This document shows, one piece after another, positions 6,049 through 37,319 of a DNA stretch of 64,000 nt. Below the pieces are notes generated by a model. It had not been told where the DNA came from. It saw only the letters and a list, made by a program, of their open reading frames with translations, and ran no database searches. Position 1 is the first letter of the stretch, and each line of letters begins with the position of its first letter. Both the position numbers and the translations under genes were made by a program. Where the stretch lies: sequence record NZ_LR134445.1, one strand, 5' to 3'. The DNA is from a plasmid.

Positions 6049-6190
6049 GCGCCGTCGGACCCGTCGCGCGCATCCCGCGCGCGAACGGAGAATGACCAGC
6101 GGTTTTGTGGGTTGCGGAGAGGTTGTGTAATGTAGCTGCTCGGCGGTTGCGCGTGACCCGTAAGGATCGCTCGCGCATCGCGTCCGATTT

Positions 6191-6282: not shown

Positions 6283-6320
6283 CGTCGGTCTTCGGACCGG
6301 CGAGAATTGAATATGGGTAT

Positions 6321-6393
6321 GCGCCCGTAGCTCAGTGGATAGAGCATCTGACTACGGATCAGAAGGTCAGGGGTTCGAATCCCTTCGGGCGCA
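6321..6393 (+). tRNA. tRNA-Arg (anticodon ACG)
   Basis: GCGCCCGTAGCTCAGTGGATAGAGCATCTGACTACGGATCAGAAGGTCAGGGGTTCGAATCCCTTCGGGCGCA. 73 nt, ACG in the anticodon loop. Confidence 0.9.
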
Positions 6394-6401
6394 CAGTGAC
6401 G

Positions 6402-6438
6402 GTCAGGGCCGGTTCTCCAGCGGAGAACCGGCCCTGAC
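6402..6438. terminator. 16-bp perfect inverted repeat (bidirectional terminator candidate) between tRNA-Arg and the convergent acyl-CoA synthetase
   Basis: GTCAGGGCCGGTTCTC-cagcg-GAGAACCGGCCCTGAC. No T-tract, as is common in actinobacteria. Confidence 0.5.
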
Positions 6439-6460
6439 TCGTATGGCGCGCGGTGCCGAC

Positions 6461-8130: not shown

Positions 8131-10812
8131 TCAACCGAGCAGCCGGGATTGCCGCACGAGGGCGACGGATTCACCGCGCGTGGAGACGCCGAGTTTGATG
8201 TTGATGTTCTTGAGGTGCCACTTGATCGTGTTGACGGCGACGCACAGCTCGGTGGCGATCCGCGCGTTCGTGTAGCCGCGATCAACGAGTCGGAGGATCT
8301 CGATCTCCCTGGCGGACAGCTGCTTCAGGGCGGGGCTGAGGTTCCGGTTCGCGACGGCCCCGCCGGTCCGGTCGACGAGGTCGGCGAGATAGGTCGCGGG
8401 GATGGCCCCGAGGTCGAGCGCGCCCGCGTGCTCGGTGGGCGACGTCTGGACGCGATGCAGGAGCGCGACCACGTCGGCACCGGCATCGAGGAAGCTGCGG
8501 CGGAGGCCGGCGCGCGCCCCGAGTTCGAGCGCGGGTGCGATGGTGCGAATCGCCTGCTGTACTCGTCCCGCCGCGTGGAGGACGCCCGCCAGGGCGATCC
8601 GCGTCGAGGTCTCCTTGCGCGGGTTACGCACCGGGTCAGTCTTTTCCAGGGCTACCGTCAGCCCAGCCACCGCCGCGGCGTGCCGGCCCTCAGCGCTGTC
8701 CATGATCGCCGCCGCCAGCGTGCGGGCGTGCTCCAGCGCACGCGAGACACCGTCCTGCCGCCCGGTGGGCCGCGGCATGGACTGGACCAGGGCGTGCGCC
8801 CGCCCGAGGTCGCCGTCGTCGACGAGGAACCGGACCCGCTCGAGACTCAGCTCCGCGTGCAATCGCGGCAGTTCCAGGCGCACAGCGGCGTCGCTCCCCT
8901 CTGTGAGGAGGCTCAGTGCCTCGGACCGCGCGCCCCGGGCGTCCCGAATCCGGGCGCGGGTGCGGTAGCTGGCGGACATGAACTCGACCAGTCCGCCGTC
9001 CGAACCCAGGCGCGCGGCCTCCGCCGACAGCCGCTCGGCCTCGTCGACCCGATCCTGTTCGTACTGCAGCTCGGCCAGGAGCGCTGCCGCGAGTTGCGCT
9101 GCGTGCGAGTGGGCACCGGCGGAGTCTCGCGCGGTGGCGAGTGCGCTCCGGAGCAATTCCTCGGCGCGCCTCGTCTTCCACTGCGAGTACGCGGCAACAC
9201 TCGCCAGGCACCGTCCGTAGACGGCGGGGAAACGGCCGGCTGTGAGGTCGTGGAAGGTGCGTGCCCACGCCTGCAGGTCCTCCGCGCGAGCGAACTCCTC
9301 GTCGTGGATCAGCACGACGGTTCGGAGGTTCGCCGCGACCCCGATCACGAACGGGCGGTGTTCGTCCGGCGCTGCGATCGCGCCGCCGACCAGGTGGTCC
9401 ACGGCTGCGGGGCGGTCGGCGAAGACATCGATGCACGCCTGGACGACGTCCGCCTCCACCTCCCGCTGGTGACGATCACCGCCGTCGTCCGGAGCCGTGA
9501 ACGAGTATCGGAGTTGATCCAGGGCGAGTTGCGCCGCGGCCGACCTCTGGAGGAGACAATTGGCCCAGCTCACCGCCATGAGTAGACGCGGCCGATCCCC
9601 GATGGCCCCGGCGGGGAGGCGGTCGATCAGCTGTAGGACAGCTACCATCCGGCTGTCCTCGATGAGCCGCATCGCCTCCCGCTCGACGAGATCGGCCGCG
9701 TCGTCGGCCCTTCCCGCCGCCATCGCGTGGTGGACGGCCTCGCCGATCATTCCGTTCTCGGCGAACCAGTCGGACGCGCGCGCGTGGAGTTCGGCGACAC
9801 GACCAGCGTCGGTCACCGCCAGCCGGCGGCGGAGGAAGTCGGCGAAGAGATGGTGGTACCGGAACCACGTCGCGTCGTCCGCCATCCGGTCGAGGAACAG
9901 ATCCCGGCGCTCCACGTCCTCCAATCGCGCGAGGCCGTCGCGCGAGCCGGTCAACGCGTCCGCGAGTGGGCCGCACACGCGCTCGGGAAGACAGGTCGCG
10001 AGCAGGAAGTCGTGCACGTCCGGGTCGAGTGCGTCCAGCACGTTCTCCGCCAGGAAGTCGCCGACCGCCCGGTGGCCGACCGCGTCGACCGGCGCCTGCG
10101 GATCGCCGCTGCGCAGCGACAGGGCCGCGAGCTTGAGAGCCGCCACCCAGCCGTCCGTCGAACGGATGAGATCCATGGTCGACACCCCGGTATCGGCGCC
10201 GAGCCCGGTGAGGAGAGAGCGTGATTCGTCATCATCGAAACGGAGCTGGGCGCTGTCGATCTCGAGTAGCTCGTCGGTGATCAGCATCCTGCTGAGAGGC
10301 AACCCGGCACGGCTACGACTCGTCACCAACACGCGGAGACCGGAGCCGCCGTTGACGATGAGGTACTCAAGCGCCGACACCGTCTCGCGCGTGGTCACCC
10401 GGTGCCAGTCATCGATGATGAGCAGCACCGGACGGTCCGCCCGTTGCAGTCCGTTGATCAGCGACGTCAGCACGTAGTGCTCCGCGGGGATCCCGACGTC
10501 GTTCAGCATGGCCGACAGATCGCCGACGGCATCGGGCGCGACGCGGCTCACCGCTGCCACGACGTGCGCGAGGAACGACAGCACCGGCTCGTCCCCGTCG
10601 ATGGACAGCCACGCAACGGCGGCCCCGTCGGCCTGGAGGCGTTCGCGCCATTGCGCGGCGAGGGCGCTCTTCCCGAAGCCCGCCGGCGCGTGGACGAGGG
10701 TGAGCCGTACGTCGGCGTGGCGCTCCAGCGTCTGCAGGAGACGAACCCGTGCCACCAACCCGCGCGGCGGAAGCGCCGGGGTGAGGCGGGTGGTGAGTAC
10801 GGATGTGTCCAT
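8131..10812 (-). CDS. LuxR-family transcriptional regulator, large ATP-binding (LAL/MalT-like) type
   Basis: 893 aa. N-terminal P-loop (HAPAGFGKSALAAQW), central TPR-like region, C-terminal LuxR HTH (LSAREIEILRLVDRGYTNARIATELCVAVNTIKWHLKNINIKLGV). Confidence 0.85.
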   Translation of the reverse strand: MDTSVLTTRLTPALPPRGLVARVRLLQTLERHADVRLTLVHAPAGFGKSALAAQWRERLQADGAAVAWLSIDGDEPVLSFLAHVVAAVSRVAPDAVGDLSAMLNDVGIPAEHYVLTSLINGLQRADRPVLLIIDDWHRVTTRETVSALEYLIVNGGSGLRVLVTSRSRAGLPLSRMLITDELLEIDSAQLRFDDDESRSLLTGLGADTGVSTMDLIRSTDGWVAALKLAALSLRSGDPQAPVDAVGHRAVGDFLAENVLDALDPDVHDFLLATCLPERVCGPLADALTGSRDGLARLEDVERRDLFLDRMADDATWFRYHHLFADFLRRRLAVTDAGRVAELHARASDWFAENGMIGEAVHHAMAAGRADDAADLVEREAMRLIEDSRMVAVLQLIDRLPAGAIGDRPRLLMAVSWANCLLQRSAAAQLALDQLRYSFTAPDDGGDRHQREVEADVVQACIDVFADRPAAVDHLVGGAIAAPDEHRPFVIGVAANLRTVVLIHDEEFARAEDLQAWARTFHDLTAGRFPAVYGRCLASVAAYSQWKTRRAEELLRSALATARDSAGAHSHAAQLAAALLAELQYEQDRVDEAERLSAEAARLGSDGGLVEFMSASYRTRARIRDARGARSEALSLLTEGSDAAVRLELPRLHAELSLERVRFLVDDGDLGRAHALVQSMPRPTGRQDGVSRALEHARTLAAAIMDSAEGRHAAAVAGLTVALEKTDPVRNPRKETSTRIALAGVLHAAGRVQQAIRTIAPALELGARAGLRRSFLDAGADVVALLHRVQTSPTEHAGALDLGAIPATYLADLVDRTGGAVANRNLSPALKQLSAREIEILRLVDRGYTNARIATELCVAVNTIKWHLKNINIKLGVSTRGESVALVRQSRLLG

Positions 10813-25749: not shown

Positions 25750-26709
25750 TCAGTCGAGTGCCGTGACCACGCCCCCGGCGTGGCCGGCCTCGCGCAGCGC
25801 CCGCTGCCACCCCGCCCCGTCGAGCACGGGGGAGAACGGGGTGCGGCGGGCGTTCTCGTACCTCCGGCGCGCCGCGTAGCCGCGCTCGGTGATCGCGCCG
25901 ACGGTGCCCCGTTCGGCGAGCTCCGCCCGCGCGGCCCGCAGTTCCGCGATGGTGTCGTCGAGCGCGTCGAGGAGTGCCGGGGCGTTCGCCTCGCACATCG
26001 CGTTCACCAGCGACGGGGCCGTGCCCGCCACGCGCGTGACGTCGCGGAAGCTGCTCGCGGCCAGCGAGAGGGCCAGCTGCTTCGCGGCCGGGTCGAGCTC
26101 GGCGGTGATCGCGACGGCCTCGGCCACCACGTGCACGGAGTGCGAGATCCGCGCGACGGCAGCGTCGTGCTCGGTGGATCCCGCGGGCACGATGGCCGCC
26201 CCGCAGTCCAGCCCGACGCTCGCGGCGAGGCGCCAGGCGTCCGCCGGGGTCTCGTCGTCGGCGGTGACCACCCAGGTCGCGCCGTCGAACAGCGCGGCGT
26301 CGGTGGCCTCCCAGCCGGAGAAGGCGGTCCCGGCCATCGGGTGGCCGCCCGCGTACCGCCCCGTCAGGCCGGCGGCGGCGACCCGCCGCGCGACGTCGCC
26401 CTTGACGCTCACCGCGTCGGTCAGCCAGGCGTTCGGGGCGTGCTCCGCGACGGCGGCGAGCACCCCGTCGAGCGCGGGGACGGGCACCGCGACCACGACG
26501 ACGTGCCCGCCCTCCTCCGCGCGACGCAGGGTCGCGGCGAGGTCCGACGAGGCGTCGAAGCCGGCGGCTCCGGCGTCGTCGACGGCGGCGGCCGAGCGGT
26601 TCCAGCCGTAGGCGGGGCGTCCCGTGCGGCCGAGGGCGCGGAGGATCGATCCGCCGATCAGGCCGAGGCCGAGGACGCACACGGGGACGCCGGAATGAGG
26701 TGTGGACAC
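25750..26709 (-). CDS. tyrA: prephenate dehydrogenase
   Basis: N-terminal NAD Rossmann VCVLGLGLIGGS, the conserved GGHPMAG region and a prephenate-binding helical domain. Confidence 0.85.
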   Translation of the reverse strand: MSTPHSGVPVCVLGLGLIGGSILRALGRTGRPAYGWNRSAAAVDDAGAAGFDASSDLAATLRRAEEGGHVVVVAVPVPALDGVLAAVAEHAPNAWLTDAVSVKGDVARRVAAAGLTGRYAGGHPMAGTAFSGWEATDAALFDGATWVVTADDETPADAWRLAASVGLDCGAAIVPAGSTEHDAAVARISHSVHVVAEAVAITAELDPAAKQLALSLAASSFRDVTRVAGTAPSLVNAMCEANAPALLDALDDTIAELRAARAELAERGTVGAITERGYAARRRYENARRTPFSPVLDGAGWQRALREAGHAGGVVTALD

Positions 26710-26788
26710 CCCGCTAGCGTTCCACAGCGGTGTGAGGAAGCCGTATGAGACGTGTCGCGGACGCGCGTTTACGGATACGGTTCAACAC

Positions 26789-27307
26789 ATGGCCGCAGAG
26801 ACCTCACCGGAGCGTTACGACGACACCGACGGCTACGCCGTGGCCGTGATCCGCGGGGAGACCGCCTGGACGGTGCACCTGCTCGACCCCGGGGCCCTCG
26901 GCAGTATCGCCAAGGCCGAGCAGGAGCTCAAGGCGCTGCGCGCGACCGGCGCCGTGATCGGGCTGCTCAACGTGGACGACGAGTACTTCGTCATCGTGCG
27001 GCCCGGCCCGTCGGGCACGCGGCTGTTGCTCTCCGACGCGACCGCCGCCGTCTTCGACGAACTCGCCGTGCAGGCGCTGGATCGGCTCGACGTCGACGTG
27101 CCGGACATCGACCCCGAGGAGATCGAGGACACCGACCCGTGGCCCGAGGGCGACCTCGGCATCCTCGGTGATCTCGGCCTCGGCGAGCAGGAGCTGAGCG
27201 TGCTGCTCGCCGACCCGGATCTCTACCCCGACGAGCAGCTCCAGGTGATCGCGGAGCGCCTCCGGTTCGACGCCGAGCTGGGCGTGATCCTCGACGCGCT
27301 GGGCTAG
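26789..27307 (+). CDS. tRNA adenosine deaminase-associated protein
   Basis: Acidic protein directly upstream of tadA, with its stop overlapping the tadA start, as in mycobacteria (Rv3753c/Rv3752c arrangement). Start taken at MAAETSPERY; an alternative start is at 26702. Confidence 0.6.
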   Translation: MAAETSPERYDDTDGYAVAVIRGETAWTVHLLDPGALGSIAKAEQELKALRATGAVIGLLNVDDEYFVIVRPGPSGTRLLLSDATAAVFDELAVQALDRLDVDVPDIDPEEIEDTDPWPEGDLGILGDLGLGEQELSVLLADPDLYPDEQLQVIAERLRFDAELGVILDALG

Positions 27308-27771
27308 TGGCGCTGCTGGACGCCGAGCGCACGGCGATGGGCTTCGCGCTCGAGGCCGCGCGGCTCGCGGGCCCCGACGACGTGCCGGTCGGTGCTGCGG
27401 TGATCGGGCCCGACGGTGCCGTGCTCGCGCTCGCCGGGAACCGTCGGGAGCAGCTCGGCGACCCGACCGCCCACGCCGAGATCCTCGCGATCCGCGAGGC
27501 GGCCGCGACGTTCGGCGACGGCTGGCGGCTCGAGGGCTGCACCCTGGCCGTCACCCTGGAGCCCTGCGCCATGTGCGCCGGGGCGCTGGTCTCGGCCCGC
27601 ATCGGCCACCTCGTCTTCGGCGCCTTCGAGCCCAAGACCGGCGCGGTCGGCTCGGTGTGGGACGTGGTCCGCGACCCCCGCGTCACCCACCGGGTCACCG
27701 TGCGCGGCGGCGTCCGGGAGGCCGAGTGTGCCGCGCTGCTGCACGACTTCTTCCGGCCGCACCGCTCCTGA
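27307..27771 (+). CDS. tadA: tRNA-specific adenosine deaminase
   Basis: CDA zinc motifs HAEILAI and PCAMCAGA. GTG start overlapping the upstream stop. Confidence 0.9.
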   Translation: MALLDAERTAMGFALEAARLAGPDDVPVGAAVIGPDGAVLALAGNRREQLGDPTAHAEILAIREAAATFGDGWRLEGCTLAVTLEPCAMCAGALVSARIGHLVFGAFEPKTGAVGSVWDVVRDPRVTHRVTVRGGVREAECAALLHDFFRPHRS

Positions 27772-27817
27772 CCTGCCGATTTAACGCCTGAGTCGTCTTC
27801 CGGTAAAGTTTCGCGAC

Positions 27818-27905
27818 GGTGGCGTGTCCGAGCGGCCGAAGGTGCAGCACTCGAAATGCTGTGTGCGGTAACCCCGTACCGAGGGTTCAAATCCCTCCGC
27901 CACCG
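27818..27905 (+). tRNA. tRNA-Ser (anticodon CGA)
   Basis: GGTGGCG...CGCCACC-G acceptor stem. Anticodon loop CUCGAAA. Long variable arm. No encoded CCA. Confidence 0.85.
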
Positions 27906-28570
27906 CTGAGAGAGACCCTCTCCGACCCCGGTCGGAGGGGGTCTTTCCCGTTCCGGGCCCGGGTGCCCGGCGTGCGGCGCCGCGGGGTTCGCCGCAGCCA
28001 CCACTCGCAGAAGCCGATCGCGATCAGCCAGCTCGGCCACGCGACGATCGCCGGCCCCCACGAGTCCATGAAGGACTCCGGCACCCCGGCGGCGTCGAGG
28101 ACGAGGAACGAGATCGGGCCCAGGATCCGGTTGATGATCACCGAGTACATGAGCGCCGCGCTGCGCAGCATCCAGCGACGGTGGGCCGCCACGTCGCCGC
28201 CGACGATCGCCCGCACACCGAGCGCCGTGAACAGCAGCATCAGCGAGCCCAGCGTCACGTTGGACGCGGCGTTGACCGGCCCGAACGGCGTCACCGTGCC
28301 GATCGCGATGGCCGCGAGCCCGACGGGCAGCGCGCACGCGACGTAGATCCGGCCCGCGATCCAGTGGTACTTCGCGAACCAGCGGCGGCCCAGCTGCACC
28401 AGCCCGGCGAGCATCGCGACGGAGCCGAGCAGGATGTGCCCGACGAGCAGCCCGTAGTACCAGTTCGGCTGGTCGTCGAGCGGCACCCGGCTGCCGCCCG
28501 TGAGGTATGGGGGAAGGGAGTAGGCGAGGAAGACGAGCACCAGCAGGGCGCCCACCAGCAGTTTCTTCAT
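27887..28570 (-). CDS. DUF2306-like integral membrane protein
   Basis: Multi-TM protein (MKKLLVGALLVLVFLAY...). The Arg-rich C-terminal tail of the ORF overlaps the terminator and the 3' end of tRNA-Ser, so the true stop is uncertain. Confidence 0.6.
   Translation of the reverse strand: MKKLLVGALLVLVFLAYSLPPYLTGGSRVPLDDQPNWYYGLLVGHILLGSVAMLAGLVQLGRRWFAKYHWIAGRIYVACALPVGLAAIAIGTVTPFGPVNAASNVTLGSLMLLFTALGVRAIVGGDVAAHRRWMLRSAALMYSVIINRILGPISFLVLDAAGVPESFMDSWGPAIVAWPSWLIAIGFCEWWLRRTPRRRTPGTRARNGKDPLRPGSERVSLSGGGGI
27912..27946 (+). terminator. intrinsic terminator hairpin after tRNA-Ser(CGA)
   Basis: GACCCTCTCCGACC-ccgg-GTCGGAGGGGGTC followed by TTT. Confidence 0.5.
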
Positions 28571-28681
28571 GCGGGAAACGCTAGGGACGGAGCCCGCGGC
28601 GGAGGATCACCCGCGCGGGTGGACCTGCGTAGTCCGCACGGGTGAGGCACCATGATCCGGGGTTCTTTTCAGGAGGAAACG

Positions 28682-29518
28682 ATGAACGACGACGGTGCCT
28701 GGGGCGCGCCCGCCCTCGACCTGCCGCGGTACCTGGAGCGCGTCGGCCTGAGCGACCCGCCGACGCCCGACCTCACCGGCCTGTCCGCGCTGGTCCGGGC
28801 GCACGCGACCACCCTGCCGTGGGAGAACTTCGACGCCGTCCGGGGTGTCCCGGGCGAGCTCACCGTCGACGCCCTGCAGCGGCGGATGATCGACGGCCGC
28901 CGCGGCTACGGCTGTACGGGCCACGTCCCGCTGCTCGCCGCGGTCCTGCAGCGCACGGGCTTCCGGTTCGGCGCCGCGTCCGGGCGGGTTCTGGTCGACG
29001 GCCGCCCGTCGGCGAGCACGCACGCCCTGCTCGTCGTGGAGGTCGACGGTGCGCCGCACCTCGCGGAGGTCGGCTTCGGCGCCGTCCCGCTCGCGCCGCT
29101 CCGGCTGGAGAGCGGCCTGGAGCAGGACGCCGGCGGCTGGCGCTACCGGCTCACCGCCGAGACCGTCGGCTTCGGCGAGGAGTGGCGGCTCGACTTCCTC
29201 GACCCGAGCTCGGGGCAGTGGCGGCCCCAGTACCGGTTCGCGCTCACCGACCGCACGTGGTCCGACCTGCGGATGACGAACTTCTACGTGGCGACCTCGC
29301 CGCACTCGCCGTTCCGCGGGCGGCTCATGGCCGTGGTCAACCGGCCCGGTGAGCGGCGCGTCCTCACGCGCGACGCGGTGATCACGACCCGCCCCGACGG
29401 GGGCAAGGAGTCCGTGCCGTACGCGGCGGCGGACCGTCGGGCGATCCTCGCCGAGACCTTCGCGATCGACCTGCCCGAGGGCGAGGCCGCCGCGCTCGCG
29501 GCCGTCAGTGGGAGCTGA
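28682..29518 (+). CDS. nat: arylamine N-acetyltransferase
   Basis: Catalytic-Cys motif RRGYGCTGH and a conserved C-terminal region. Start MNDDGAW carries an AGGAGG RBS 5 nt upstream. Confidence 0.85.
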   Translation: MNDDGAWGAPALDLPRYLERVGLSDPPTPDLTGLSALVRAHATTLPWENFDAVRGVPGELTVDALQRRMIDGRRGYGCTGHVPLLAAVLQRTGFRFGAASGRVLVDGRPSASTHALLVVEVDGAPHLAEVGFGAVPLAPLRLESGLEQDAGGWRYRLTAETVGFGEEWRLDFLDPSSGQWRPQYRFALTDRTWSDLRMTNFYVATSPHSPFRGRLMAVVNRPGERRVLTRDAVITTRPDGGKESVPYAAADRRAILAETFAIDLPEGEAAALAAVSGS

Positions 29519-29900
29519 AGAAGCCGATCGCCTTGTCGCCGCTGTCGCAGCGCGCGAGCATGCCGGGGGTCTGCGGGAACGTGCAGTTCCAGCCCTCGAC
29601 GGTGGCGGGCTTCGCCATCGCGATCTGCGGTCCGAAGGCGTTGGCGACGCGCATGGCCTCGGCGCAGTCGACCTTCGTGGTGCCCAGCGCGTGCACGTAC
29701 AGGGCGCCGTCGGGGCCGCGGGTCTGCCCGCACATCTCGGCGCGGGTCTCGGCCACCGTCGTCGTGGCCGACGGTGCGCCGGACGGCGCGGGGCTCGCGG
29801 CCGGGTCGGAGGAACTGCCGCAGCCCGCGAGGAGCAGGCCGCACACTGTTGCAGTTGCGACGGCTGTGACAGGCGTTGCGAAGTGCTGAAATGCGGTCAT
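29505..29900 (-). CDS. hypothetical lipoprotein
   Basis: Start MTAFQHF. Signal peptide with lipobox LLAGC. 131 aa. Confidence 0.5.
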   Translation of the reverse strand: MTAFQHFATPVTAVATATVCGLLLAGCGSSSDPAASPAPSGAPSATTTVAETRAEMCGQTRGPDGALYVHALGTTKVDCAEAMRVANAFGPQIAMAKPATVEGWNCTFPQTPGMLARCDSGDKAIGFFSSH

Positions 29901-30052
29901 GCCCTGCACGCTACCCGCGAACTGGTGATGAGCCTCACAAAAGTGCCGGTCAGCGACATTATTGCGGGCGGCAACGATCGGTACACTCGACAGCGACCCG
30001 TATCGCGCAGCCCGTCGCGCCTCGACGACCTGGAGTGACTCGCATGGCACTG

Positions 30053-33000
30053 TTCCTGTACCGGCTGGGGAGGTTCGCCTACCTCAACCGCTTCAAAGTC
30101 ATCGTGGCGTGGCTGCTGATCTTCGCCGGCATGCTCACCGGCGGCGCGCTTCTCAAGGGCGCCACGGTCGACAACTTCTCCCTGCCGGGTCTTCCCTCGG
30201 CGAAGGCGACGGACATCGTCTCCGAGAACTTCGGCGACAGCGGCGGCGACCCGTTCACCACCGCCTCGGCGACCATCGTCTTCCACACCAAGGACGGCAA
30301 GCTCACCGATCCGGCGGCCGCGGCGGGCATCGACCGCACGATCGCCGACCTCAAGAACCTCACCAAGGACCAGGACGGCCGTCAGGTCTCCGTGGTCCAG
30401 GATCCGGAGCTCCTGCACAACCCGACGGGCAAGCTGGACACCGACGCGCTGACGCCGGAGCAGCGCTCGAAGCTCGAGGCGGTCGCGGCGCAGGGCAAGG
30501 ACATCGCGTCGACCAAGACGCAGGCGCAGAAGGACGCCGACGCGGCGGCCACCTCGTCGGTGAGCCCCGACGGCAAGACCGCCAAGATCACGGTCGACTT
30601 CGTCGGCAAGGTCACGGAGCTGCCGGACACCCTGTCCGAGGACATCAAGAAGGCCCGCGAGGCCGGCGAGGCCGCGTCGAACGGCACGCTGCAGGTCGAG
30701 GCCGACGGTTCCGCCGCCCGCGGTGCCGAGGACATGGGCATGACCAGCGAGATCATCGGCATGATCGTCGCGGCGATCGTCCTGATCATCACCTTCGCCT
30801 CGCTCGTCGCCTGGGGCCTGCCGCTGCTGAACGCGATCATCGCGGTCCCGGTGGCCATCGGCGGCGTCATGATCGCCTCGCACTTCATCGAGCTCGGCAC
30901 CTTCCCCACGGTCCTGACCTCGATGATCGGCCTGGCCGTCACCATCGACTACGCGCTGTTCATCGTGTCCCGGTACCGGCACGAACTGCGGCGCCTCGGC
31001 GCCACCACCAAGGAGCAGCGGGCCGAGGCCGCGGGCATCGCCGTCGGCACCGCCGGCACCGCCGTGATCTTCGCCGGCCTGACGGTGATCATCGCGCTCG
31101 CCGCGCTCGCCTTCATCGGCATGGACTTCCTCGGTCAGATGGGCGTCGCCGCCGCGTGGGGCGTGTTCATCGCCGTCATCGTGGCGCTGACGCTGCTCCC
31201 GGCCCTGCTGGGCCTGTTCGGCTCCAAGGTCTTCGCCGGCCGGGTCAAGGGCCTGCATCCGCAGGACACGGACCAGGGCGAGGGCCGCGTCGCCAACGGC
31301 CTGCGCTGGGCCAACCTGGTCAAGAAGGTTCCCGTCGTGACCCTCGTCGCGGGCGTCGCCATCCTCGGCATCCTCGCCATCCCGATGAAGGACATGAAGA
31401 CCGCCCTGCCCGGCTCGGGCATGAGCGAGAAGAGCACGTCGGAGCGCCAGGCCTACGACCTCATCTCCGACGCCTGGGGCAAGGGCGCCAACGGCACCCT
31501 CCTCGTCGCGGTCGACGGTGCCGGGGCCCAGCCGAACCAGCGCCTGGGCGCCTACAAGCAGATCGTCGACCAGCTCAACACCAACCCCAACATCGCGCCG
31601 CTCATCGCGAACGCGCAGCTCGCCCAACTCGCGCAGGACAACAAGGCCGCCACCATCATGGTGACGCCCAAGTCCGGCCCGAACGACGACGACACCAAGA
31701 CGCTGGTCACCAAGCTCCGCACCATGACCAACGGTGACGCCGGCACGAAGGCGCGGCTCGGCGTGGACCTCGGCGTCGCGGGCAGCACGGCCATCGAGAT
31801 GGACATCTCGGAGAAACTCGGCGACGCGCTGTGGATCTACCTCGGAATCGTCGTGGGTCTGGCGTTCCTGCTGCTGCTCGTCGCCTTCCGCTCGATCCTG
31901 GTGCCGCTCACCGCGGTTCTGGGCTTCCTGCTGTCCGTCGTCGCCACGTTCGGCGTCACCTCCGCGATCTTCACCGACGGTGCCCTCGGCCTCATCGACA
32001 ACACGCAGCCGCTGGTCTCGTTCCTGCCGATCTTCCTGATCGGCATCGTCTTCGGCCTCGCGATGGACTACCAGGTCTTCCTCGTCTCCCGGATGCGCGA
32101 GGAGTTCGTGCACACCGGCGACGCCACACAGTCCGTGGTGACGGGCGTGCAGTACGGCGCCCGTGTGGTGACCGCCGCTGCGATCATCATGATCTCGGTC
32201 TTCGCCTCGTTCATCCTCAACGAGCAGGTCTTCATCAAGGAGATCGGCTTCGGCCTCGCCGCGGCCGTGCTGCTCGACGCCTTCGTCGTGCGGATGGTCC
32301 TGATCCCGTCGGTGATGATGCTGCTCGGCAAGTGGGCGTGGTGGCTGCCGAAGTGGCTCGACAAGATCCTGCCGAACGTCGACATCGAGGGCGAGGCGCT
32401 CGTCGCCCAGCTCGGCCGCGGCGACGCGAACGCCGATACCGCCGCGATCCCCGCGCCGATCACGGCCGAGATCCCGGTGCCCACCGAGCAGCTCGTGGCC
32501 GCCGGTGCGACCGATGTCCACGCCCGCGGCAAGGCGCGCGTCGAGCACGCCGGCGTGAACGGCCACACCAACGGCACCACCAACGGTGCCGCCCACGGTG
32601 CCGAGCTCCCGACGGCCGCCCCGACGGTGCCCGTGCCGCTGCCCCTCGGCAAGGACGACGAGCACGTCACGGAGCAGGCACCGGTGTACGCGGACACGGA
32701 GCAGGTCGCCACGGCGGAGGCGGACGCGGCGGAGGCCGGCGCACCGGACACCGCCGAGTACCCGGTCGCGCGTCCGGGCGTCCCGCGCCCCGACCAGACC
32801 GCGACGGGCCCGATCCGCCCGCGCGACCGGACCCGCGACGAGATCGCGCAGCTGCGCGAGCAGAACAAGGCGATCGCGGCGGAGCTCAGCGCGCTGCGCT
32901 CTGACTACCGGTCGATGGCCAGCCGCACGCGACTGCAGAGCGAGCACATCAGCGATCCCACGCGGTTCGAGATCGAGGGTCGCCTCGAGGGGCCCGACGG

Positions 33001-34216
33001 TCCGCTCGGCCGCGCCGGCCGGCTGCTCACGCCGCACGGCGAGATGCTCACCCCCGCGTTCATCCCCGTCGGCACCAAGGCGACGGTGAAGACCGTACTG
33101 CCCGAGGCGGTCTCGGAGCTGGGCGCGCAGGCGGTGCTGGCGAACGCCTACCACCTGTACCTGCAGCCCGGACCGGAGATCGTGGAGCAGGCCGGCGGCC
33201 TCGGCGCGTTCATGAACTGGGACGGTCCCACCTTCACCGATTCCGGTGGCTTCCAGGTGATGTCGCTCGGGTCGGGGTTCAAGAAGGTCATCGACATGAC
33301 CGGCGGCGAGGAACTGCAGGGCGACGACGCGATCGCCGAGGGCAAGGACCGTCTCTCCCGCGTCGACGACGACGGCGTGACCTTCCTCAGCCACCTCGAC
33401 GGCACCGAGCACCGGTTCACTCCGGAGCGGTCGATGCAGATCCAGCACCAGCTCGGCGCCGACGTGATCTTCGCGTTCGACGAGCTGACCACCCTGCACA
33501 ACACCCGCGCGTACCAGGTGGAGTCGCTGGAGCGGACCCGCCTGTGGGCGCGGCGCTGCCTCTCCGAGCACAACTGGCTCACCGCGCAGCGGCACGATGC
33601 GATCTCGCTGTGGGGCGTCGTGCAGGGCGCGCAGTACGAGGACCTGCGCCGCAAGGCCGCCCGCGACCTGCGGGCGCTGAGCGAGGAGGACCGGTTCTCC
33701 GGCGGCCTCGGCTTCGGCGGCTACGGCATCGGCGGGGCGCTGGAGAAGGCGAACCTGTCGACCATCGTGCGCTGGGTGAACCAGGAGCTCGAGGAGGACA
33801 AGCCGAAGCACCTGCTGGGCATCTCCGAGCCGGACGACATCTTCGCCGCGGTGGAGCAGGGCATCGACACGTTCGACTGCGTCTCCCCGTCGCGGGTGGC
33901 CCGCAACGGCGCGATCTACTCGCTCGACGGCCGCTACAACGTGACCAATTCGCGGTTCAAGACGGACTTCCGCCCGCTGGACCCGGACACGCAGAACTAC
34001 ACCTCGCAGTACACCCGCGCGTACATCCATCACCTGTTCAAGGCGAAGGAGGGCCTCGCGGCCACGCTGTGCACCATCCATAACGAGCAGTTCGTCGTCT
34101 CCCTGGTCGCGAAGATCCGGCAGTCGATGATCGACGGGACGTACTGGGACTTCAAGGAGGAGTTCCTGGGGCGCTACTACAAGGGCACCCAGCAGCACCT
34201 CGCCAAGTCCGACTAG
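30053..34216 (+). CDS. single ORF encoding an MMPL-family (RND) transporter fused through a ~180-aa low-complexity linker to a queuine/guanine tRNA-ribosyltransferase (Tgt)-like domain
   Basis: Start MALFLYRLGRFAYLNRF with 12 TM helices. The canonical MmpL C-terminal motif WWLPKWLDKILPNVDIEGE lies near 32400. No in-frame stop follows. The Ala/Pro/Thr-rich linker has high GC3. A complete Tgt fold follows: LLTPHGEMLTPAFIPVGTKATVK, FTDSGGFQV, LGADVIFAFDEL, GYGIGGALE, GIDTFDCVSPSRVARNG. Confidence 0.7.
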   Translation, partial: FLYRLGRFAYLNRFKVIVAWLLIFAGMLTGGALLKGATVDNFSLPGLPSAKATDIVSENFGDSGGDPFTTASATIVFHTKDGKLTDPAAAAGIDRTIADLKNLTKDQDGRQVSVVQDPELLHNPTGKLDTDALTPEQRSKLEAVAAQGKDIASTKTQAQKDADAAATSSVSPDGKTAKITVDFVGKVTELPDTLSEDIKKAREAGEAASNGTLQVEADGSAARGAEDMGMTSEIIGMIVAAIVLIITFASLVAWGLPLLNAIIAVPVAIGGVMIASHFIELGTFPTVLTSMIGLAVTIDYALFIVSRYRHELRRLGATTKEQRAEAAGIAVGTAGTAVIFAGLTVIIALAALAFIGMDFLGQMGVAAAWGVFIAVIVALTLLPALLGLFGSKVFAGRVKGLHPQDTDQGEGRVANGLRWANLVKKVPVVTLVAGVAILGILAIPMKDMKTALPGSGMSEKSTSERQAYDLISDAWGKGANGTLLVAVDGAGAQPNQRLGAYKQIVDQLNTNPNIAPLIANAQLAQLAQDNKAATIMVTPKSGPNDDDTKTLVTKLRTMTNGDAGTKARLGVDLGVAGSTAIEMDISEKLGDALWIYLGIVVGLAFLLLLVAFRSILVPLTAVLGFLLSVVATFGVTSAIFTDGALGLIDNTQPLVSFLPIFLIGIVFGLAMDYQVFLVSRMREEFVHTGDATQSVVTGVQYGARVVTAAAIIMISVFASFILNEQVFIKEIGFGLAAAVLLDAFVVRMVLIPSVMMLLGKWAWWLPKWLDKILPNVDIEGEALVAQLGRGDANADTAAIPAPITAEIPVPTEQLVAAGATDVHARGKARVEHAGVNGHTNGTTNGAAHGAELPTAAPTVPVPLPLGKDDEHVTEQAPVYADTEQVATAEADAAEAGAPDTAEYPVARPGVPRPDQTATGPIRPRDRTRDEIAQLREQNKAIAAELSALRSDYRSMASRTRLQSEHISDPTRFEIEGRLEGPDGPLGRAGRLLTPHGEMLTPAFIPVGTKATVKTVLPEAVSELGAQAVLANAYHLYLQPGPEIVEQAGGLGAFMNWDGPTFTDSGGFQVMSLGSGFKKVIDMTGGEELQGDDAIAEGKDRLSRVDDDGVTFLSHLDGTEHRFTPERSMQIQHQLGADVIFAFDELTTLHNTRAYQVESLERTRLWARRCLSEHNWLTAQRHDAISLWGVVQGAQYEDLRRKAARDLRALSEEDRFSGGLGFGGYGIGGALEKANLSTIVRWVNQELEEDKPKHLLGISEPDDIFAAVEQGIDTFDCVSPSRVARNGAIYSLDGRYNVTNSRFKTDFRPLDPDTQNYTSQYTRAYIHHLFKAKEGLAATLCTIHNEQFVVSLVAKIRQSMIDGTYWDFKEEFLGRYYKGTQQHLAKSD
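32918..34216 (+). other. tgt: Tgt-like domain within the fused ORF (possible internal start MASRTRLQ), lacking the Zn-binding cysteines
   Basis: The bacterial Tgt zinc site [22 protein letters not shown] is PLDPDTQNYTSQYTRAYIHHL here (Cys to Thr, Asn, Ser). Catalytic Asp residues are retained. An in-frame ATG at 32918 lies 11 nt after an out-of-frame TGA. Confidence 0.6.
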
Positions 34217-34250
34217 CGCGGCGGGGCGGGGCCGGCCGTAGGATTCGGAC

Positions 34251-35240
34251 ATGTCCCACGTGGTGGCGCTGCCCGTCTGCGACGGGATGACGATGCTCGA
34301 GTACGGCACCGTGCTGGAGGCGCTCAGCTTCGAGTGGAACGACCTCCCCTCGCTCGGCTACGACGTGCGCGGCTGCGGGCCGGCCGACGGGGTGCGGACG
34401 CTCGGCGGCGCGGTGCTGCGGCCGGCGTACGGACTGGACGAGATCGCGGGCGCCGACACCGTCATCATCACGGCCGTGTCGGACCCGCGGACCGATTCGA
34501 ACCCGGAGTGGCACGAGCCGCTGCGCGCGGCTGCGGCGAACGGCGCGCGGATCGTCTCGATCTGCACGGGTGCCTTCGCGCTCGCGGCGGCCGGCCTGCT
34601 CGACGGCCGGCGGGCCACGACGCACTGGCGCCACGCGGGCCTCCTGCAGTTCCGCTTCCCGCGGGTGCACGTCACGCCCTCGGAGCTCTACATCCAGGAC
34701 GGCCCGGTGCTCACCGGTGCGGGCTCCGCGGCGGGCCTGGACCTGTGCCTGCACCTGATCCGCTCCGATCACGGGGCCGGCACCGCGAATGAGGTGGCCC
34801 GCCGCCTCGTCGTCGCGCCGCACCGCGACGGCGATCAGTCGCAGTTCGTCAACATCGACACCCTGCGGCCCGACATGGACAAGCGCTTCGCCGACTTCCT
34901 GCAGGGTCTCGCGCACGGCATCGGCGGCGTCAAGGGGCTCGACGACATGGCGGCCCGCGCGGGCGTCTCCCGCCGCACCCTGCACCGCCGGTTCCGGCAG
35001 TACACCGGCGTCGCACCGCTGGAATGGCTGATGCGGCAACGGGTCTACCGCGCCATGCGGTTGTTGGAGACGACGAACGACTCCGTCACGGCGATCACCG
35101 GCCGCGCGGGTTTCGACGCCGAGGAGACGCTGCGCTACCACTTCAAGCGGCAGACCGGCCTCGCTCCCACCGCCTACCGTGAGCGCTTCCGCGGCAGCGA
35201 CGTGGGGCGCAGCTCCGCCCGGACGGTGGCCGGATCTTGA
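34251..35240 (+). CDS. GlxA-family transcriptional regulator (DJ-1/PfpI domain plus AraC HTH)
   Basis: N-terminal class-I glutamine-amidotransferase-like (DJ-1) fold (IVSICTGAFALAAAGLLDG). C-terminal AraC dual HTH. Confidence 0.85.
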   Translation: MSHVVALPVCDGMTMLEYGTVLEALSFEWNDLPSLGYDVRGCGPADGVRTLGGAVLRPAYGLDEIAGADTVIITAVSDPRTDSNPEWHEPLRAAAANGARIVSICTGAFALAAAGLLDGRRATTHWRHAGLLQFRFPRVHVTPSELYIQDGPVLTGAGSAAGLDLCLHLIRSDHGAGTANEVARRLVVAPHRDGDQSQFVNIDTLRPDMDKRFADFLQGLAHGIGGVKGLDDMAARAGVSRRTLHRRFRQYTGVAPLEWLMRQRVYRAMRLLETTNDSVTAITGRAGFDAEETLRYHFKRQTGLAPTAYRERFRGSDVGRSSARTVAGS

Positions 35241-35501
35241 GGAATTCCGGCACCGCACACCTGGGCGGCGCGGCGCGGCCCGGATAGCGTTTCGGACATG
35301 AGGATTCAGCAGATGAGGAAGGTCTTCGGCGGCACCCGGGCGGCCCCGACGACGAACCGGACCCTGGGATGGCTGCGGGAGTTCGCCTCCGGTGTCGCGG
35401 CGGGCAACCTCGTCCGGCACGGCGCCGGCGTGCCCGGCGCGCACGACTCGCGGATCTGCGAGCGGCCGCGGCTGGGCCCCGCTCCCGCTGGGCGGCACGC
35501 C

Positions 35502-36359
35502 TCAGAGCGGTAGCGTCCAGGGCTCGCGCGGCAGCCGCGCGGGGTCGAAGTCGTCGAGCATCTCGCGCGGCGTGCGACCGCGCAGCCCCAGGCTCGCGGC
35601 CAACTCGGGGAGCACCACCGCCGGCCCGCCGCGCTCGGCGAGGGTGACGGCACCGTCGCGCTTCGCGAGCCGGACGCCGGTGGGCCCCAGCACCATCGGC
35701 ACGTGGGCGTAGGTCGGAGGCGCCCCGCCGAGGAGGGTCGTCAGGTACGCCTGGCGGGGCGCGGAGGAGAGCAGGTCGTCGCCGCGCACCACCTGGTCGA
35801 CACCCTGCGCGGCGTCGTCGACCACCACGGCCAGGTTGTAGGCGTACGTCCCGTCGCCCCGTCGCAGCACGACATCGTCCACGGCACCGGTGTACTCGCC
35901 GTGCAGCAGATCCGTCACGGTGAACGACGGGACCGTCGCGCGCAGGCGCACCGCCGCCGGCCGCTCCCGCCGCCGGACCACCCGCTCGGCCTCCGTGAGG
36001 TCGCGGCAGGTGCCCGGGTACGCGCCCTCCGGCGCGTGCGGCGCCGACGGTGCGGCGAGGATCTCCCGCCGCGTGCAGTAGCACTCGTAGACGTCGAGCC
36101 GCTCCAGCGCCGCCGCGTAGCGTGCGGTTCGCTCCGACTGCCGCACCGTCTCGCCGTCCCAGTCCAGGCCCAGCGCGGCGAGGTCGGCGAGCTGTCGCGC
36201 CTCGGCACCGTCGGCCGTGCGGCCGGTGTCCAGGTCCTCGACGCGCATCAGGAAGTCCCGCCCCGTCGAGCGGGCGAAGAGCCAGGCGAGCAGGGCTGTC
36301 CGCAGGTTGCCCACGTGCAGGTCGCCCGACGGGCTCGGCGCGTACCGTCCAGCTGTCAC
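35502..36359 (-). CDS. gluQ: glutamyl-Q tRNA(Asp) synthetase
   Basis: Truncated GluRS catalytic domain: [23 protein letters not shown] (HIGH-class motif) and [11 protein letters not shown]. About 285 aa with no anticodon-binding domain. Confidence 0.85.
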
Positions 36360-36368
36360 CGCCCCAGC

Positions 36369-37319
36369 TTACGAGCGCGCGCGGGAGAGATTGTCGGCCC
36401 AGCGGGCCAGGTGGGCCGTCAGCTCCGCGGGCGCGACGACGGTGACCTCGGCGTCGAGGACGGCGATCGCCATCGCGGGCCAGTCCAGGGAATCGGCCTC
36501 CATCCGCACGACGGTGCCGTCCGGCACCTCCTCGAGGCGCGCGTACCGGCCGATGAGCGGGCGCACGTGCTCGACGGGCGCGGCCACGCGGAACTCGATC
36601 CGATGGGCGGGCGCGCGCTGGCCGACGGACGCGCGCACGTAGGCGGCGGCGTCCTCGGCGGGGAGGTCGCGCGGCCGGAACCGCACGCCCGTGCTCGACG
36701 GTCCGCTGATCCGGTCGAGCCGGAAGCTGCGCCAGTCGTGGCGGTACAGGTCGTAGGCGACGAGGTACCAGCGGCGCCCGAGCGGCACGAGCCGCATCGG
36801 CTCGGCCAGGCGGTCGGTGCGCGCCCCGTCGGCGGCCGTGTAGCCGAACTCGATCCGCTCTTCCGCCCGGCACGCCTCCGCGAGGCCGGTGAGGACCCGC
36901 GGGTCGACGGCGGGCCCGCCGGTCAGGACGGCTGGTTGGGTGACGGCGCCCAACGCCTCGACGCGCTTGCGCAGCCGCGGCGGCATCACCGCGGCCACCT
37001 TGCCCAGCGCGCGCACCGAGGTCTCGGCGATGCCCGCGATCCCGCCCTGCGCCGCGGTCTGCAGGCCGACGGCGATCGCCACCGCCTCCTCGTCGTCGAG
37101 GACCAGCGGCGGTAGTGCGGCGCCGGCGGCCAGCTGATAGCCGCCGTCGACGCCGCGGGACGCGGAGACGGGGTAGCCGAGGTCGCGCAGGCGCTCGATG
37201 TCGCGCCGCAGGGTGCGCACCGACACCTCGAGCCGGTCGGCCAGCTCGGAGCCCGGCCAGTAGCGGTGGGTCTGCAGGAGGGACAGCAGCCGCAGGGTTC
37301 GAGAGCTCGTGTTCGCCAT
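36369..37319 (-). CDS. YafY-family transcriptional regulator (HTH plus WYL domain)
   Basis: N-terminal HTH (RTLRLLSLLQTHRYWPGSELADRLEVSVRTLRRDIERL). WYL-type motif (RRWYLVAYDLYRHDWRSFRLDRI). Divergent from the DinB/ligase/primase operon. Confidence 0.8.
   Translation of the reverse strand: MANTSSRTLRLLSLLQTHRYWPGSELADRLEVSVRTLRRDIERLRDLGYPVSASRGVDGGYQLAAGAALPPLVLDDEEAVAIAVGLQTAAQGGIAGIAETSVRALGKVAAVMPPRLRKRVEALGAVTQPAVLTGGPAVDPRVLTGLAEACRAEERIEFGYTAADGARTDRLAEPMRLVPLGRRWYLVAYDLYRHDWRSFRLDRISGPSSTGVRFRPRDLPAEDAAAYVRASVGQRAPAHRIEFRVAAPVEHVRPLIGRYARLEEVPDGTVVRMEADSLDWPAMAIAVLDAEVTVVAPAELTAHLARWADNLSRARS

Follow-up and report, generated by a model that had tools for sequence, protein, structure and literature searches.

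An MMPL transporter and a tRNA-guanosine transglycosylase domain in one translated frame in Tsukamurella

Does the long frame in the middle of this locus encode a single protein that joins a membrane transporter to a tRNA-modifying enzyme, and if so, what might such a protein do? We scanned the window, which is the whole stretch of 64,000 nucleotides analysed here, and found an uninterrupted plus-strand frame from 29876 to 34216. The sequence-only reading had placed an MmpL transporter and a complete Tgt in this one frame, as ORF, Pfam and TIGR00430 results confirm. The frame that it described was indeed uninterrupted, but its start (30053, 1388 codons) is the fourth codon of the gene. The true start is ATG 30044 (MALFLYRLG), preceded by 8 nt by a Shine-Dalgarno-like GGAG (30032–30035, plus strand). 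The complete mmpL–linker–zipper–tgt gene thus spans 30044–34216 on the plus strand, with 1390 codons and a stop, and its 1390-aa product is 100% identical to the database protein P0001.

One frame from transporter to Tgt

The antisense strand of this ~70% GC DNA also carries an open frame, of 1470 aa (29897–34309), so that the absence of stops alone has little weight. The case for a translated fusion is instead carried by GC3, indel phase and dN/dS. In each 120-nt window from 31853 to 33592, linker included, GC3 was 0.90–1.00 in the ORF frame, whereas the two other frames gave 0.26–0.85 and both contained stops. The junction, measured in 15 loci as the stretch between the DIEGE and DPTRF motifs, zipper included, was 480–609 nt long, with 10 distinct lengths that were each a multiple of 3. 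Together with the dN/dS values given below, these results agree with the earlier proposal that the linker is translated in the ORF frame. The MMPL–Tgt fusion is therefore confirmed as genuine and translated through the linker in one frame.

The transporter part comprises residues 1–784 (30044–32395, plus strand). PF03176 (MMPL) matched with 293.9 bits in two stretches, representing two MMPL repeats. The hydrophobic clusters follow a 1+5+1+5-like layout, and each hydrophobic half carries a 'DY' motif (D299/Y300 and D672/Y673, numbered from codon 4), both pairs being invariant among 11 aligned fusions. The part closes with the motif WWLPKWLDKILPNVDIEGE, which ends at nt 32395 with no stop after it, as had been read from the sequence for a position near 32400. 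The nearest solved structure is that of MmpL3 (E=1.5e-48), the trehalose monomycolate exporter, which has the same two-repeat architecture. The alignment stops at about residue 779, the same place at which the hydrophobic region ends, and it is here that a long disordered C-terminal extension begins. In published MmpL3 structures the tail is cytoplasmic; it is also disordered but has no enzyme domain, whereas that of the window protein ends in Tgt. With NF052608 the window protein scored 212.8 bits, below the cut-off of 1400, so that it is not an MmpL3 orthologue.

The Tgt (tRNA guanosine(34) transglycosylase) domain occupies residues 971–1390 (32954–34213, plus strand). It matched Pfam TGT (PF01702) with 379.3 bits, the NCBIfam Tgt equivalog TIGR00430 with 377–381 bits (cut-off 306.75) and Z. 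mobilis Tgt structures with E~1e-88, and its AF2 model has a pLDDT of mostly 85–97. No catalytic or dimer hot-spot residue is missing, and equivalents of D102, S103, D156, Q203, G229, G230, D280 and H349 are present, while the zinc cysteines C318, C320 and C323 have no equivalents. With 67–78% identity to stand-alone actinobacterial Tgt, the domain is, judged by its residues, an ordinary actinobacterial orthologue and looks competent.

Tsukamurella also has Tgt paralogues of its own that are catalytically dead, carry the same zipper and sit on MFS and second-class MMPL transporters. Since they retain dimer-interface residues, they can be set beside the eukaryotic QTRT1/QTRT2 heterodimer, although a Tsukamurella heterodimer would be conjecture. 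QTRT1/QTRT2, which is reported to be associated with the mitochondrial outer membrane, shares a Tgt-family catalytic unit with the fusion; it is peripheral, whereas the Tsukamurella Tgt is fused to a transporter, and QTRT2 keeps the zinc site that the fusion Tgt lacks.

Between the two domains, residues 785–930 (32396–32833, plus strand) form a variable, disordered and presumably cytoplasmic linker of ~146 aa that is rich in Ala (21%), Pro (12%) and Thr (11%), with an AF2 pLDDT of 30–38. Close pairs gave a dN/dS of 0.22–0.28 for this linker, and distant pairs one of about 1. Then follows a conserved pre-Tgt helix with a leucine zipper of four heptads (32825–32941, plus strand). AF2 models residues 928–966 as one helix, whose pLDDT climbs from ~53 at the beginning to 75–92. 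The zipper core, EIAQLREQNKAIAAELSALRSDYRSM, lies at nt 32840–32917, with I-N-L-Y at the a positions and L-I-L-M at the d positions; the heptad register and the core Asn are kept in 22 proteins. At a dN/dS of 0.02–0.13, compared with 0.07–0.22 for Tgt, constraint on the zipper is on par with that on Tgt.

Neighbouring genes and origin

The fusion is specific to Tsukamurella, and sister genera have both genes neighbouring but separate. In Jongsikchunia (L017) and Williamsia (L018–20, 22, 24–26), mmpL lies directly upstream of tgt in a different frame and ends at its own stop ~20 codons past the DIEGE motif; a spacer of 60–120 nt with a promoter-like motif follows, and tgt then starts from GTG. 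Unlike in Tsukamurella, neither the long linker nor the zipper is present. The Tgt proteins are orthologous to that of the fusion (75–78% identity, with 45–49% for MMPL), and the gene order lipoprotein – mmpL – tgt – gluQ is common to all three genera. The promoter-like motif is conserved before stand-alone tgt in 19 loci and absent from the Tsukamurella linkers. From these separate adjacent genes, the fusion most likely arose when mmpL lost its stop codon and the spacer and the promoter-like motif of tgt disappeared.

A convergent gene 1.3 kb downstream (35502–36359, minus strand) encodes GluQRS, the tRNA glutamyl-Q(34) synthetase (NF004315, 311 bits against 250; TIGR03838, 299 bits against 276.7). 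Present downstream of tgt in 72/80 related loci, it provides a functional context that ties the locus to queuosine. A small gene that diverges from the fusion gene (29505–29900, minus strand) encodes a predicted lipoprotein, whose translated N-terminus resembles a signal peptide with a lipobox (…LLLAGCGSS); profile searches returned no family match. Its homologues occur in 70/80 loci: in Tsukamurella and Williamsia they lie upstream of mmpL and diverge from it, and in Gordonia they immediately precede tgt. The Tgt of Gordonia is of the same Zn-less kind but has no MMPL adjoining, and in Rhodococcoides the MMPL gene is 3.7 kb away. The Gordonia arrangement indicates that the association is lineage-restricted and not needed for Tgt function.

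Proposed function of the fusion

The sequence-only reading was wrong to consider such a coupling undescribed, as fusions are found in Yuan et al. 2024 (Epigenomes 8:16, PMC11130926), UniProt and NCBI. That article describes fusions of MMPL and TGT as 'unique to different Tsukamurella species', proposes them as candidate queuosine-precursor transporters, names Tpau_4044 (UniProt D5UNC0, 1382 aa) and includes in Table S1 a 1390-aa protein from T. tyrosinosolvens. These proteins share family and architecture with the window protein, with nothing essential different; T. paurometabola P0008 (1382 aa), aligned over 100% of the query, has 79% identity. In the passages of the article that we consulted, we found no mention of an origin from an adjacent gene pair, of the linker and leucine zipper, of the loss of the zinc site, or of the dead, zipper-carrying paralogues that only Tsukamurella has on MFS and second-class MMPL transporters and their catalytic status.

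We lean towards a reading in which the MmpL3-like MMPL part, disordered tail, zipper and complete Tgt make up a tethered Tgt pair, a candidate for coupled uptake and insertion of a base. The MmpL C-terminus is probably cytoplasmic, which would tether Tgt to the membrane on its inner side. Judged by its sequence, the zipper, which has a buried Asn, would most likely pair two tethered Tgt domains, and this pairing would matter because only the homodimer of Tgt is active (bioRxiv 10.1101/2020.09.01.277731). The paired Tgt would exchange G34 of tRNA Asp, Asn, His and Tyr for a 7-deazaguanine base, after which the adjoining GluQRS would modify Q-tRNA(Asp). The MMPL part would handle the salvaged base, as Yuan et al. 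2024 (PMC11130926) hypothesized. This base would most likely be queuine, since Actinomycetota are predicted queuine salvagers, and uptake and insertion would be coupled at the membrane.

According to PMC11130926, independent transporter–TGT fusions exist with QPTR, MFS and MMPL, and MMPL ranked high in an analysis of TGT gene neighbourhoods across bacteria. QPTR (YhhQ/COG1738)–TGT fusions, which serve there as evidence linking transport and base insertion, resemble the Tsukamurella protein in joining a membrane transporter to a bacterial Tgt. However, QPTR has an unrelated fold and is an experimentally established preQ0/preQ1 importer, whereas MMPL is RND-type and its import function is hypothetical.

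A less probable but serious alternative is a real fusion without functional coupling, in which MMPL exports a lipid or another envelope compound and Tgt, attached by stop loss between neighbouring genes, functions as an ordinary Tgt whose membrane tether is incidental. The MMPL part is most like MmpL3-type exporters and, to our knowledge, RND/MMPL proteins of known function are exporters. The variable linker is weakly constrained, and the gene adjacency is absent in Gordonia and interrupted in Rhodococcoides. Ahead of the fusion gene, a search for Rfam elements, preQ1 riboswitches included, found none. Moreover, PMC11130926 reports that Corynebacterium propinquum MmpL did not restore preQ0/preQ1 uptake in E. 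coli; expression problems were not ruled out by its authors, and the reported tests were of preQ0 and preQ1, with queuine not among them. The exporter precedent, this negative test, the lack of a riboswitch and the Gordonia loci without MMPL were all counted against transport coupling. On the other hand, the frame has been kept genus-wide despite many linker indels, the fusion has gained a zipper under strong constraint, and MMPL–TGT neighbourhoods are reported as enriched across bacteria. In addition, duplicates of the zipper–Tgt module sit on other transporters, which is hard to square with a purely neutral accident.

Free Tgt and integrity of the frame

We consider it unlikely that the locus works mainly as two proteins, with a free Tgt of ~430 aa made from a start near 32915 or by linker cleavage and read-through being minor. 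RefSeq does annotate a stand-alone Tgt of 414–436 aa in several Tsukamurella species, the in-frame ATG (Met958) that NCBI takes as its start is present (32915–32917, plus strand), and the disordered linker is potentially protease-sensitive. Initiation that is leaderless or lacks a Shine-Dalgarno sequence is also common in Mycobacteriales. The sequence-only reading, which had raised internal initiation, was right about this ATG and an out-of-frame TGA (32902–32904), but placed the ATG at 32918, and its proposal is now weakened. No purine-rich Shine-Dalgarno sequence precedes ATG 32915, and neither a sigma-70-like promoter for an internal start nor the promoter-like motif of stand-alone tgt was found. 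The Met958 codon is ACG in L016 and encodes Ile in P0009, and the starts picked by NCBI vary among species, so that it is probably not a conserved start. Synonymous divergence is not reduced in the helix (dS 0.25–0.93, against 0.29–0.60 for Tgt), which gives no indication of a hidden nucleotide element. The zipper lies upstream of this ATG, yet it is strongly constrained at the protein level, which is only sensible if it is translated with Tgt. Finally, as no stop intervenes, each ribosome translating mmpL must yield the fused ~148-kDa protein. Under the tethered-pair reading, some additional free Tgt may arise by internal initiation or proteolytic release.

That a hidden indel in assembly or sequencing joins two separate genes is so improbable as to be refuted for practical purposes: the two frame breaks within the linker of L013 (Tsukamurella sp. 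PLM1, complete genome) speak for it, but the frame is intact in 14 independent assemblies of different species, linker indels keep phase and GC3 is continuous. The earlier rejection of a hidden frameshift accordingly stands, with dN/dS in agreement, and comparison of orthologous loci found Tsukamurella not to be uniformly two-gene, the MMPL→Tgt frame being continuous in 14/16 species loci. The three frame segments of L013 combine to give the intact protein P0005 of an independent assembly, which makes L013 an exception, either a recent pseudogene or the result of an error in sequencing. Both PF03176 and PF01702 are present in nine database clusters, at 67–100% identity.

Reading frame and conservation of the MMPL–Tgt fusion

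The fusion gene lies on the + strand in an uninterrupted frame that spans 29876..34216. Its start was placed at ATG 30044 (MALFLYRLG), with a GGAG sequence 8 nt upstream, giving a product of 1390 residues that is identical to the database protein P0001. The sequence-only reading had recognised this frame as real and single, and the start it gave, 30053, corresponds to the fourth codon. The internal in-frame ATG that it pointed out exists as well, at 32915–32917 rather than 32918, with the out-of-frame TGA at 32902–32904. These corrections are small offsets, and the remainder of its description stands as given. In the product, Pfam recognised MMPL in two stretches (PF03176, 293.9 bits) together with a complete TGT domain (PF01702, 379.3 bits).

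In DNA of ~70% G+C an open frame alone is weak proof of a gene, because an antisense frame of 1470 codons (29897-34309, − strand) covers the whole fusion gene. This antisense frame is a high-GC artefact, lying opposite a gene whose own-frame GC3 is ~0.95. Across the junction between the two domains, GC3 in the frame of the fusion was 0.90–1.00 in every 120-nt window, and the other two frames, with GC3 of 0.26–0.85, contained stops.

Nine clusters in which both Pfam domains occur were returned by a whole-protein search; their identity is 67–100% at 100% coverage, and T. spumae, T. serpentis and T. paurometabola are among them. A locus scan with one genome per species yielded 16 Tsukamurella loci, of which 14 have their MMPL and Tgt matches within a single stop-free frame. 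One of the other two ends at a contig edge. The second, from Tsukamurella sp. PLM1 (L013, NZ_AP025688.1), changes frame through two 1-nt shifts inside the linker (locus positions ~8570-8900) relative to the fusion protein P0005. Its protein is readable across three frames, the pieces reproducing the intact P0005 from an independent assembly; either this complete genome contains a sequencing error here, or the gene is a recent pseudogene.

The junction, measured from the end of the MMPL motif to the start of the Tgt domain, takes 10 different lengths (480–609 nt) in 15 fused loci, all of them multiples of three. When the junction was aligned freely at the nucleotide level, 30 of the 36 distinct gap runs were also multiples of three. 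Segment-wise dN/dS (Nei-Gojobori) was 0.24–0.44 for MMPL and 0.07–0.22 for Tgt. The variable linker gave 0.22–0.28 for close pairs and ~1 for distant pairs, where the alignment is unreliable, and the ~40-residue segment preceding Tgt gave 0.02–0.13, the one exception being about 0.6 in comparison with L016, the most distant Tsukamurella locus.

The in-frame lengths and the dN/dS values across species thus indicate that the frame of the fusion is translated and selected. A hidden frameshift or an assembly error, against which the sequence-only reading had already argued, is ruled out by the 14 species assemblies, the phase of the linker lengths and GC3. The comparison of orthologous loci that it had proposed found the fusion kept in 14/16 Tsukamurella loci and separate genes in Jongsikchunia and Williamsia. 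By sequence comparison, then, the fusion is real, genus-wide and under selection. Outside the two Tsukamurella-type classes, no MMPL–Tgt fusion appeared in the top 150 matches among 1.84 billion representatives, and none of non-Tsukamurella type was among the listed matches of the whole-protein database search.

RefSeq records a stand-alone Tgt of 414–436 aa in Tsukamurella (P0121–P0125, P0513–P0516), starting at or near Met958 with a choice of start that varies between species; other annotators call a fusion of 1382–1394 aa. This splitting of fused genes hides the architecture from routine annotation. An internally initiated, stand-alone Tgt had also been suggested from the sequence and found no support here. 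ATG 32915 is preceded by no purine-rich Shine-Dalgarno sequence and is not conserved (ACG in L016, Ile in the fusion protein P0009), a search of 29400–34600 gave no sigma-70-like site, and synonymous divergence (dS) in the helix preceding Tgt is no lower than in Tgt itself. The strongly constrained zipper, moreover, lies upstream of this ATG. As there is no stop upstream, the fused protein must be produced; judging from the sequence, free Tgt through internal initiation or proteolytic release is possible.

Architecture of the fusion protein

Residues 1–784 constitute the MMPL transporter. It comprises two MMPL repeats, in each of which a periplasmic domain precedes a hydrophobic bundle, consistent with the 12-TM plan of the family, and has hydrophobic clusters at residues ~17–43, 230–399, 423–452 and 591–766. 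Among solved structures MmpL3 is the closest (E=1.5e-48); both halves align to it, and the alignment stops at ~residue 779, where the hydrophobic region ends. The Asp-Tyr proton-relay pairs, which sit in TM4 and TM10 of MmpL3, are represented by the motifs IDYALF and MDYQVF, and D299/Y300 and D672/Y673 are invariant in 11/11 aligned fusions. The likeness to MmpL3 is one of size and fold class only: as an orthologue of this trehalose monomycolate exporter (NF052608) the protein was rejected, scoring 212.8 bits against a cut-off of 1400.

The transporter is followed by an Ala-, Pro- and Thr-rich linker (residues 785–930) that was modelled as disordered (pLDDT 30–38). The AF2 model of linker and Tgt, which the sequence-only reading had suggested making, then shows a single long helix at residues ~928–966, its pLDDT rising from ~53 at the start to 75–92. 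The helix core, EIAQLREQNKAIAAELSALRSDYRSM, forms a clean heptad with I/L-N-L-Y at the a positions and L-I/L/M-L-M/I/L at the d positions, and its core Asn is invariant in 22/22 proteins matching the helix pattern. The heptad pattern together with the invariant Asn is a leucine-zipper signature.

The Tgt domain (residues 971–1390) spans profile positions 11–364 (of 368) of the equivalog TIGR00430 and scores 377–381 bits, where the cut-off is 306.75. Compared with Z. mobilis Tgt, whose numbering we use, it keeps D102, S103, D156, Q203, G229, G230, D280 and H349. We take D280 to be the catalytic Asp nucleophile, D102 the general acid/base, and D156, Q203 and G229/G230 the base-binding residues. 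The dimer hot-spot residues F92, Y326, Y330 and H333 are likewise kept (F, Y, Y and H in the window). They belong to the aromatic cluster of the homodimer interface (F92, W/Y/F326, Y330, H333) defined for Tgt, an enzyme active only as a homodimer (bioRxiv 10.1101/2020.09.01.277731).

The structural zinc site (CxCxxC…H; C318, C320, C323 and H349) is not preserved, since the three Cys are replaced (…LDPDTQNYTSQYTRAY…) and only H349 is kept. This motif region lies at 34004-34075 of the window, CxCxxC being changed to, for example, T-Q-N-Y-T-S, as also seen in the database proteins P0126, P0135 and P0152. Gordonia, Williamsia and Jongsikchunia, whose Tgt is stand-alone, lack the cysteines as well (82/120 relatives), and the Tgt of Rhodococcus and Mycobacterium keeps CDCYTC. 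As it is common to stand-alone relatives, the loss characterises this clade of the orthologue and was not brought about by the fusion. Structural study of a bacterial Tgt clade free of zinc may be worthwhile.

The preQ1-type pocket (C158 and L231-A232-V233-G234-E235) also differs, with L in place of C158 and A-L-E-K-A in place of L-A-V-G-E. This change is present in all six actinobacterial Tgt examined, Zn-containing ones included, and is compatible with a preference for some other base, for instance queuine, the one predicted for Actinomycetota. All the actinobacterial Tgt examined also have the insertion of ~25 residues found in the Tgt domain. The domain is closest to stand-alone Tgt proteins of 405–440 aa (67–78% identity) and looks like an ordinary orthologue. 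A diverged, neofunctionalised Tgt is ruled out, given that the loss of the Zn cysteines, the ALEK pocket and the insertion of 25 aa all recur in stand-alone actinobacterial Tgt. Base exchange on tRNA G34 is predicted, with indirect support from the adjoining, syntenic GluQRS.

Locus, neighbours and origin

The flanks of the locus are conserved, with a divergent small lipoprotein gene in 70/80 loci and a convergent GluQRS gene in 72/80. The small predicted lipoprotein (29505-29900, − strand) matches no family and is the divergent neighbour upstream of mmpL in Tsukamurella and Williamsia; in Gordonia its gene abuts tgt directly. GluQRS, the tRNA glutamyl-Q(34) synthetase (35502-36359, − strand; NF004315, 311 bits against 250), is encoded 1.3 kb from the fusion gene and convergent with it, and its position downstream of tgt in those 72 loci extends over five genera. 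Among 24 neighbouring proteins scanned, GluQRS was the only queuosine gene product, with no queA, queC/D/E/F, queG/H, yhhQ or similar gene near the locus. Further off, the window encodes a tRNA adenosine deaminase-associated protein (26702-27307, + strand; TIGR03941, 171 bits) upstream of an 88-nt tRNA gene (27818-27905, + strand), and the ORF between them, at 27307–27771, may be tadA.

In Jongsikchunia (L017) and in Williamsia (L018–20, 22, 24–26), mmpL lies directly upstream of tgt and shares 45–49% identity. The separate mmpL of these loci is in another frame and has its own stop ~20 codons past the '…LPNVDIEGE' motif, and a spacer of 60–120 nt follows before tgt begins with GTG. In other Williamsia 0.7–2 kb separate the MMPL gene from tgt, in Rhodococcoides 3.7 kb, and the Gordonia neighbourhood has no such gene. 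The simplest history suggested by these arrangements is that Tsukamurella, Williamsia and Jongsikchunia descend from a shared ancestor with an adjacent mmpL–tgt pair, and that the Tsukamurella lineage would then have lost the stop and the spacer and gained the long linker and the zipper.

In 19 loci stand-alone tgt is preceded by a conserved motif, G[GC]GA[AG]GATGC..CGGTGAG, whose end coincides with the GTG start (8929-8947 in the Williamsia locus L019; the remaining 18 are Williamsia/Gordonia loci as well), and a TTT(T)G-rich element lies ~20 nt further upstream. The motif probably represents a –10-like element of a promoter for leaderless tgt mRNA. The motif was absent from all Tsukamurella linkers when up to 4 mismatches were allowed.

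One locus of the scan, L023 (NZ_JNYV01000002.1, labelled Kitasatospora arboriphila NRRL B-24581), has a layout and identities nearly equal to those of Williamsia muralis (L021, L022): MMPL lies at 4604–6880 against 4606–6882, and Tgt shares 77% identity with the query. Mislabelling or contamination of the record is probable.

Possible queuosine-precursor transport and the pseudo-Tgt paralogues

The fusion had been thought undescribed. The Tsukamurella MMPL–Tgt fusion is in fact already known, in the literature as well as in databases. A search for transporter–bTGT fusions (Yuan et al. 2024, Epigenomes 8:16, PMC11130926) found, besides QPTR–TGT, two types 'unique to different Tsukamurella species', an MFS fusion (Tpau_0550, D5USC3) and an MMPL fusion (Tpau_4044, D5UNC0). 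Its Table S1 gives MMPL–TGT proteins of 1382–1383 aa in T. paurometabola, 1398 aa in T. pulmonis and 1390 aa in T. tyrosinosolvens, the last having the same length as the window protein. MMPL also obtained a high score in the TGT gene-neighbourhood analysis of that paper, and most Actinomycetota are predicted there to be queuine salvagers because they are without QueDECF, QueA and QueG/H. Beyond this paper, our search for later literature linking MmpL and queuosine returned none, only one unrelated paper.

One polypeptide carries a transporter, a disordered tether, a zipper and a catalytically complete Tgt. The tail of the transporter would be cytoplasmic; MmpL3 structures have a cytoplasmic tail. 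The zipper would pair two tethered Tgt domains into an obligatory dimer, in which Tgt would exchange G34 for a 7-deazaguanine base, and GluQRS would then glutamylate Q in tRNA-Asp. The MMPL part may deliver the salvaged base, as hypothesised in PMC11130926. We consider the structural part of this mechanism highly probable and the mechanism overall slightly favoured; transport coupling by the MMPL part is put forward tentatively, with somewhat more doubt than belief.

A criterion for queuosine-precursor transporters, a class that comprises QPTR/YhhQ, QueT/QrtT and the MFS/UPS/HlyIII cases of PMC11130926, is fusion or clustering with tgt or further Q genes. Delivery of a base by the MMPL part agrees with this linkage, MMPL being fused to Tgt in Tsukamurella and adjoining it in Williamsia and Jongsikchunia, with gluQ nearby. 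Against it stands a published test in which the MmpL of Corynebacterium propinquum, expressed in E. coli ΔqueD ΔQPTR, gave no preQ0 or preQ1 uptake; the authors considered expression problems possible (PMC11130926). Furthermore, characterised RND/MMPL proteins are exporters, Gordonia has the same Tgt but no adjacent MMPL, and no riboswitch lies upstream of the fusion gene: a search for preQ1-riboswitches or other cis-regulatory RNAs (Rfam, E ≤ 1, over 27000–37000) gave only a tRNA. Control by preQ1-riboswitches is common, not universal, for QueT and QPTR genes. E. coli Tgt is not known to use queuine, so the published assay was unable to detect queuine transport. PMC11130926 reports no queuine test of the C. 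propinquum MmpL.

A Tgt covalently tied to a transporter, as recognised in 2024, is the strongest genomic hint available on queuine uptake in Actinomycetota, for which dependence on salvage is predicted. Import or hand-over of queuine by MMPL, if true, would be an unusual role for RND/MMPL proteins, an export family and a drug-target family in mycobacteria. The present analysis adds evidence of genus-wide selection on the fusion, separate-gene ancestors as natural controls, and a constrained leucine zipper, which is mechanistically sensible for a dimer-only enzyme. The remaining interest lies in the putative transport link and in a family of modules combining the zipper with pseudo-Tgt.

A profile of divergent Tgt-like proteins retrieved Tsukamurella members only (P0011, P0022, P0242, P0248, P0250, P0388–P0397, P0501 and P0505), none of them encoded within the window. 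The zipper recurs in these paralogues, as do two motifs specific to Tsukamurella, AEHNW and GGLGFGGY. Of the catalytic and base-binding residues D156, Q203 and S103 are gone, whereas the dimer hot-spot persists (Y330, H333 and W95 kept). They include full-length fusions to DHA2-type MFS transporters (P0501, which is D5USC3, 1062 aa; P0505, 1037 aa) and a second MMPL class fused to divergent Tgt (P0011, P0022, P0242). We found neither their dead status nor the shared zipper mentioned in PMC11130926.

Judged by its residues, the Tgt of the window MMPL fusion would be the sole catalytically competent one within this zipper-Tgt family. One could imagine a family of zipper-Tgt modules attached to the cytoplasmic tails of efflux-type transporters, forming zipper-driven membrane heterodimers of a catalytic and a pseudo-subunit that link queuosine modification of tRNA with transporter activity in either direction, an idea that we regard as unlikely. 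Such catalytic/pseudo-Tgt heterodimers, if they exist, may correspond in bacteria to the eukaryotic QTRT1/QTRT2 pair. The pseudo-Tgt fusions of the MFS class and of the second MMPL class are also split in RefSeq.
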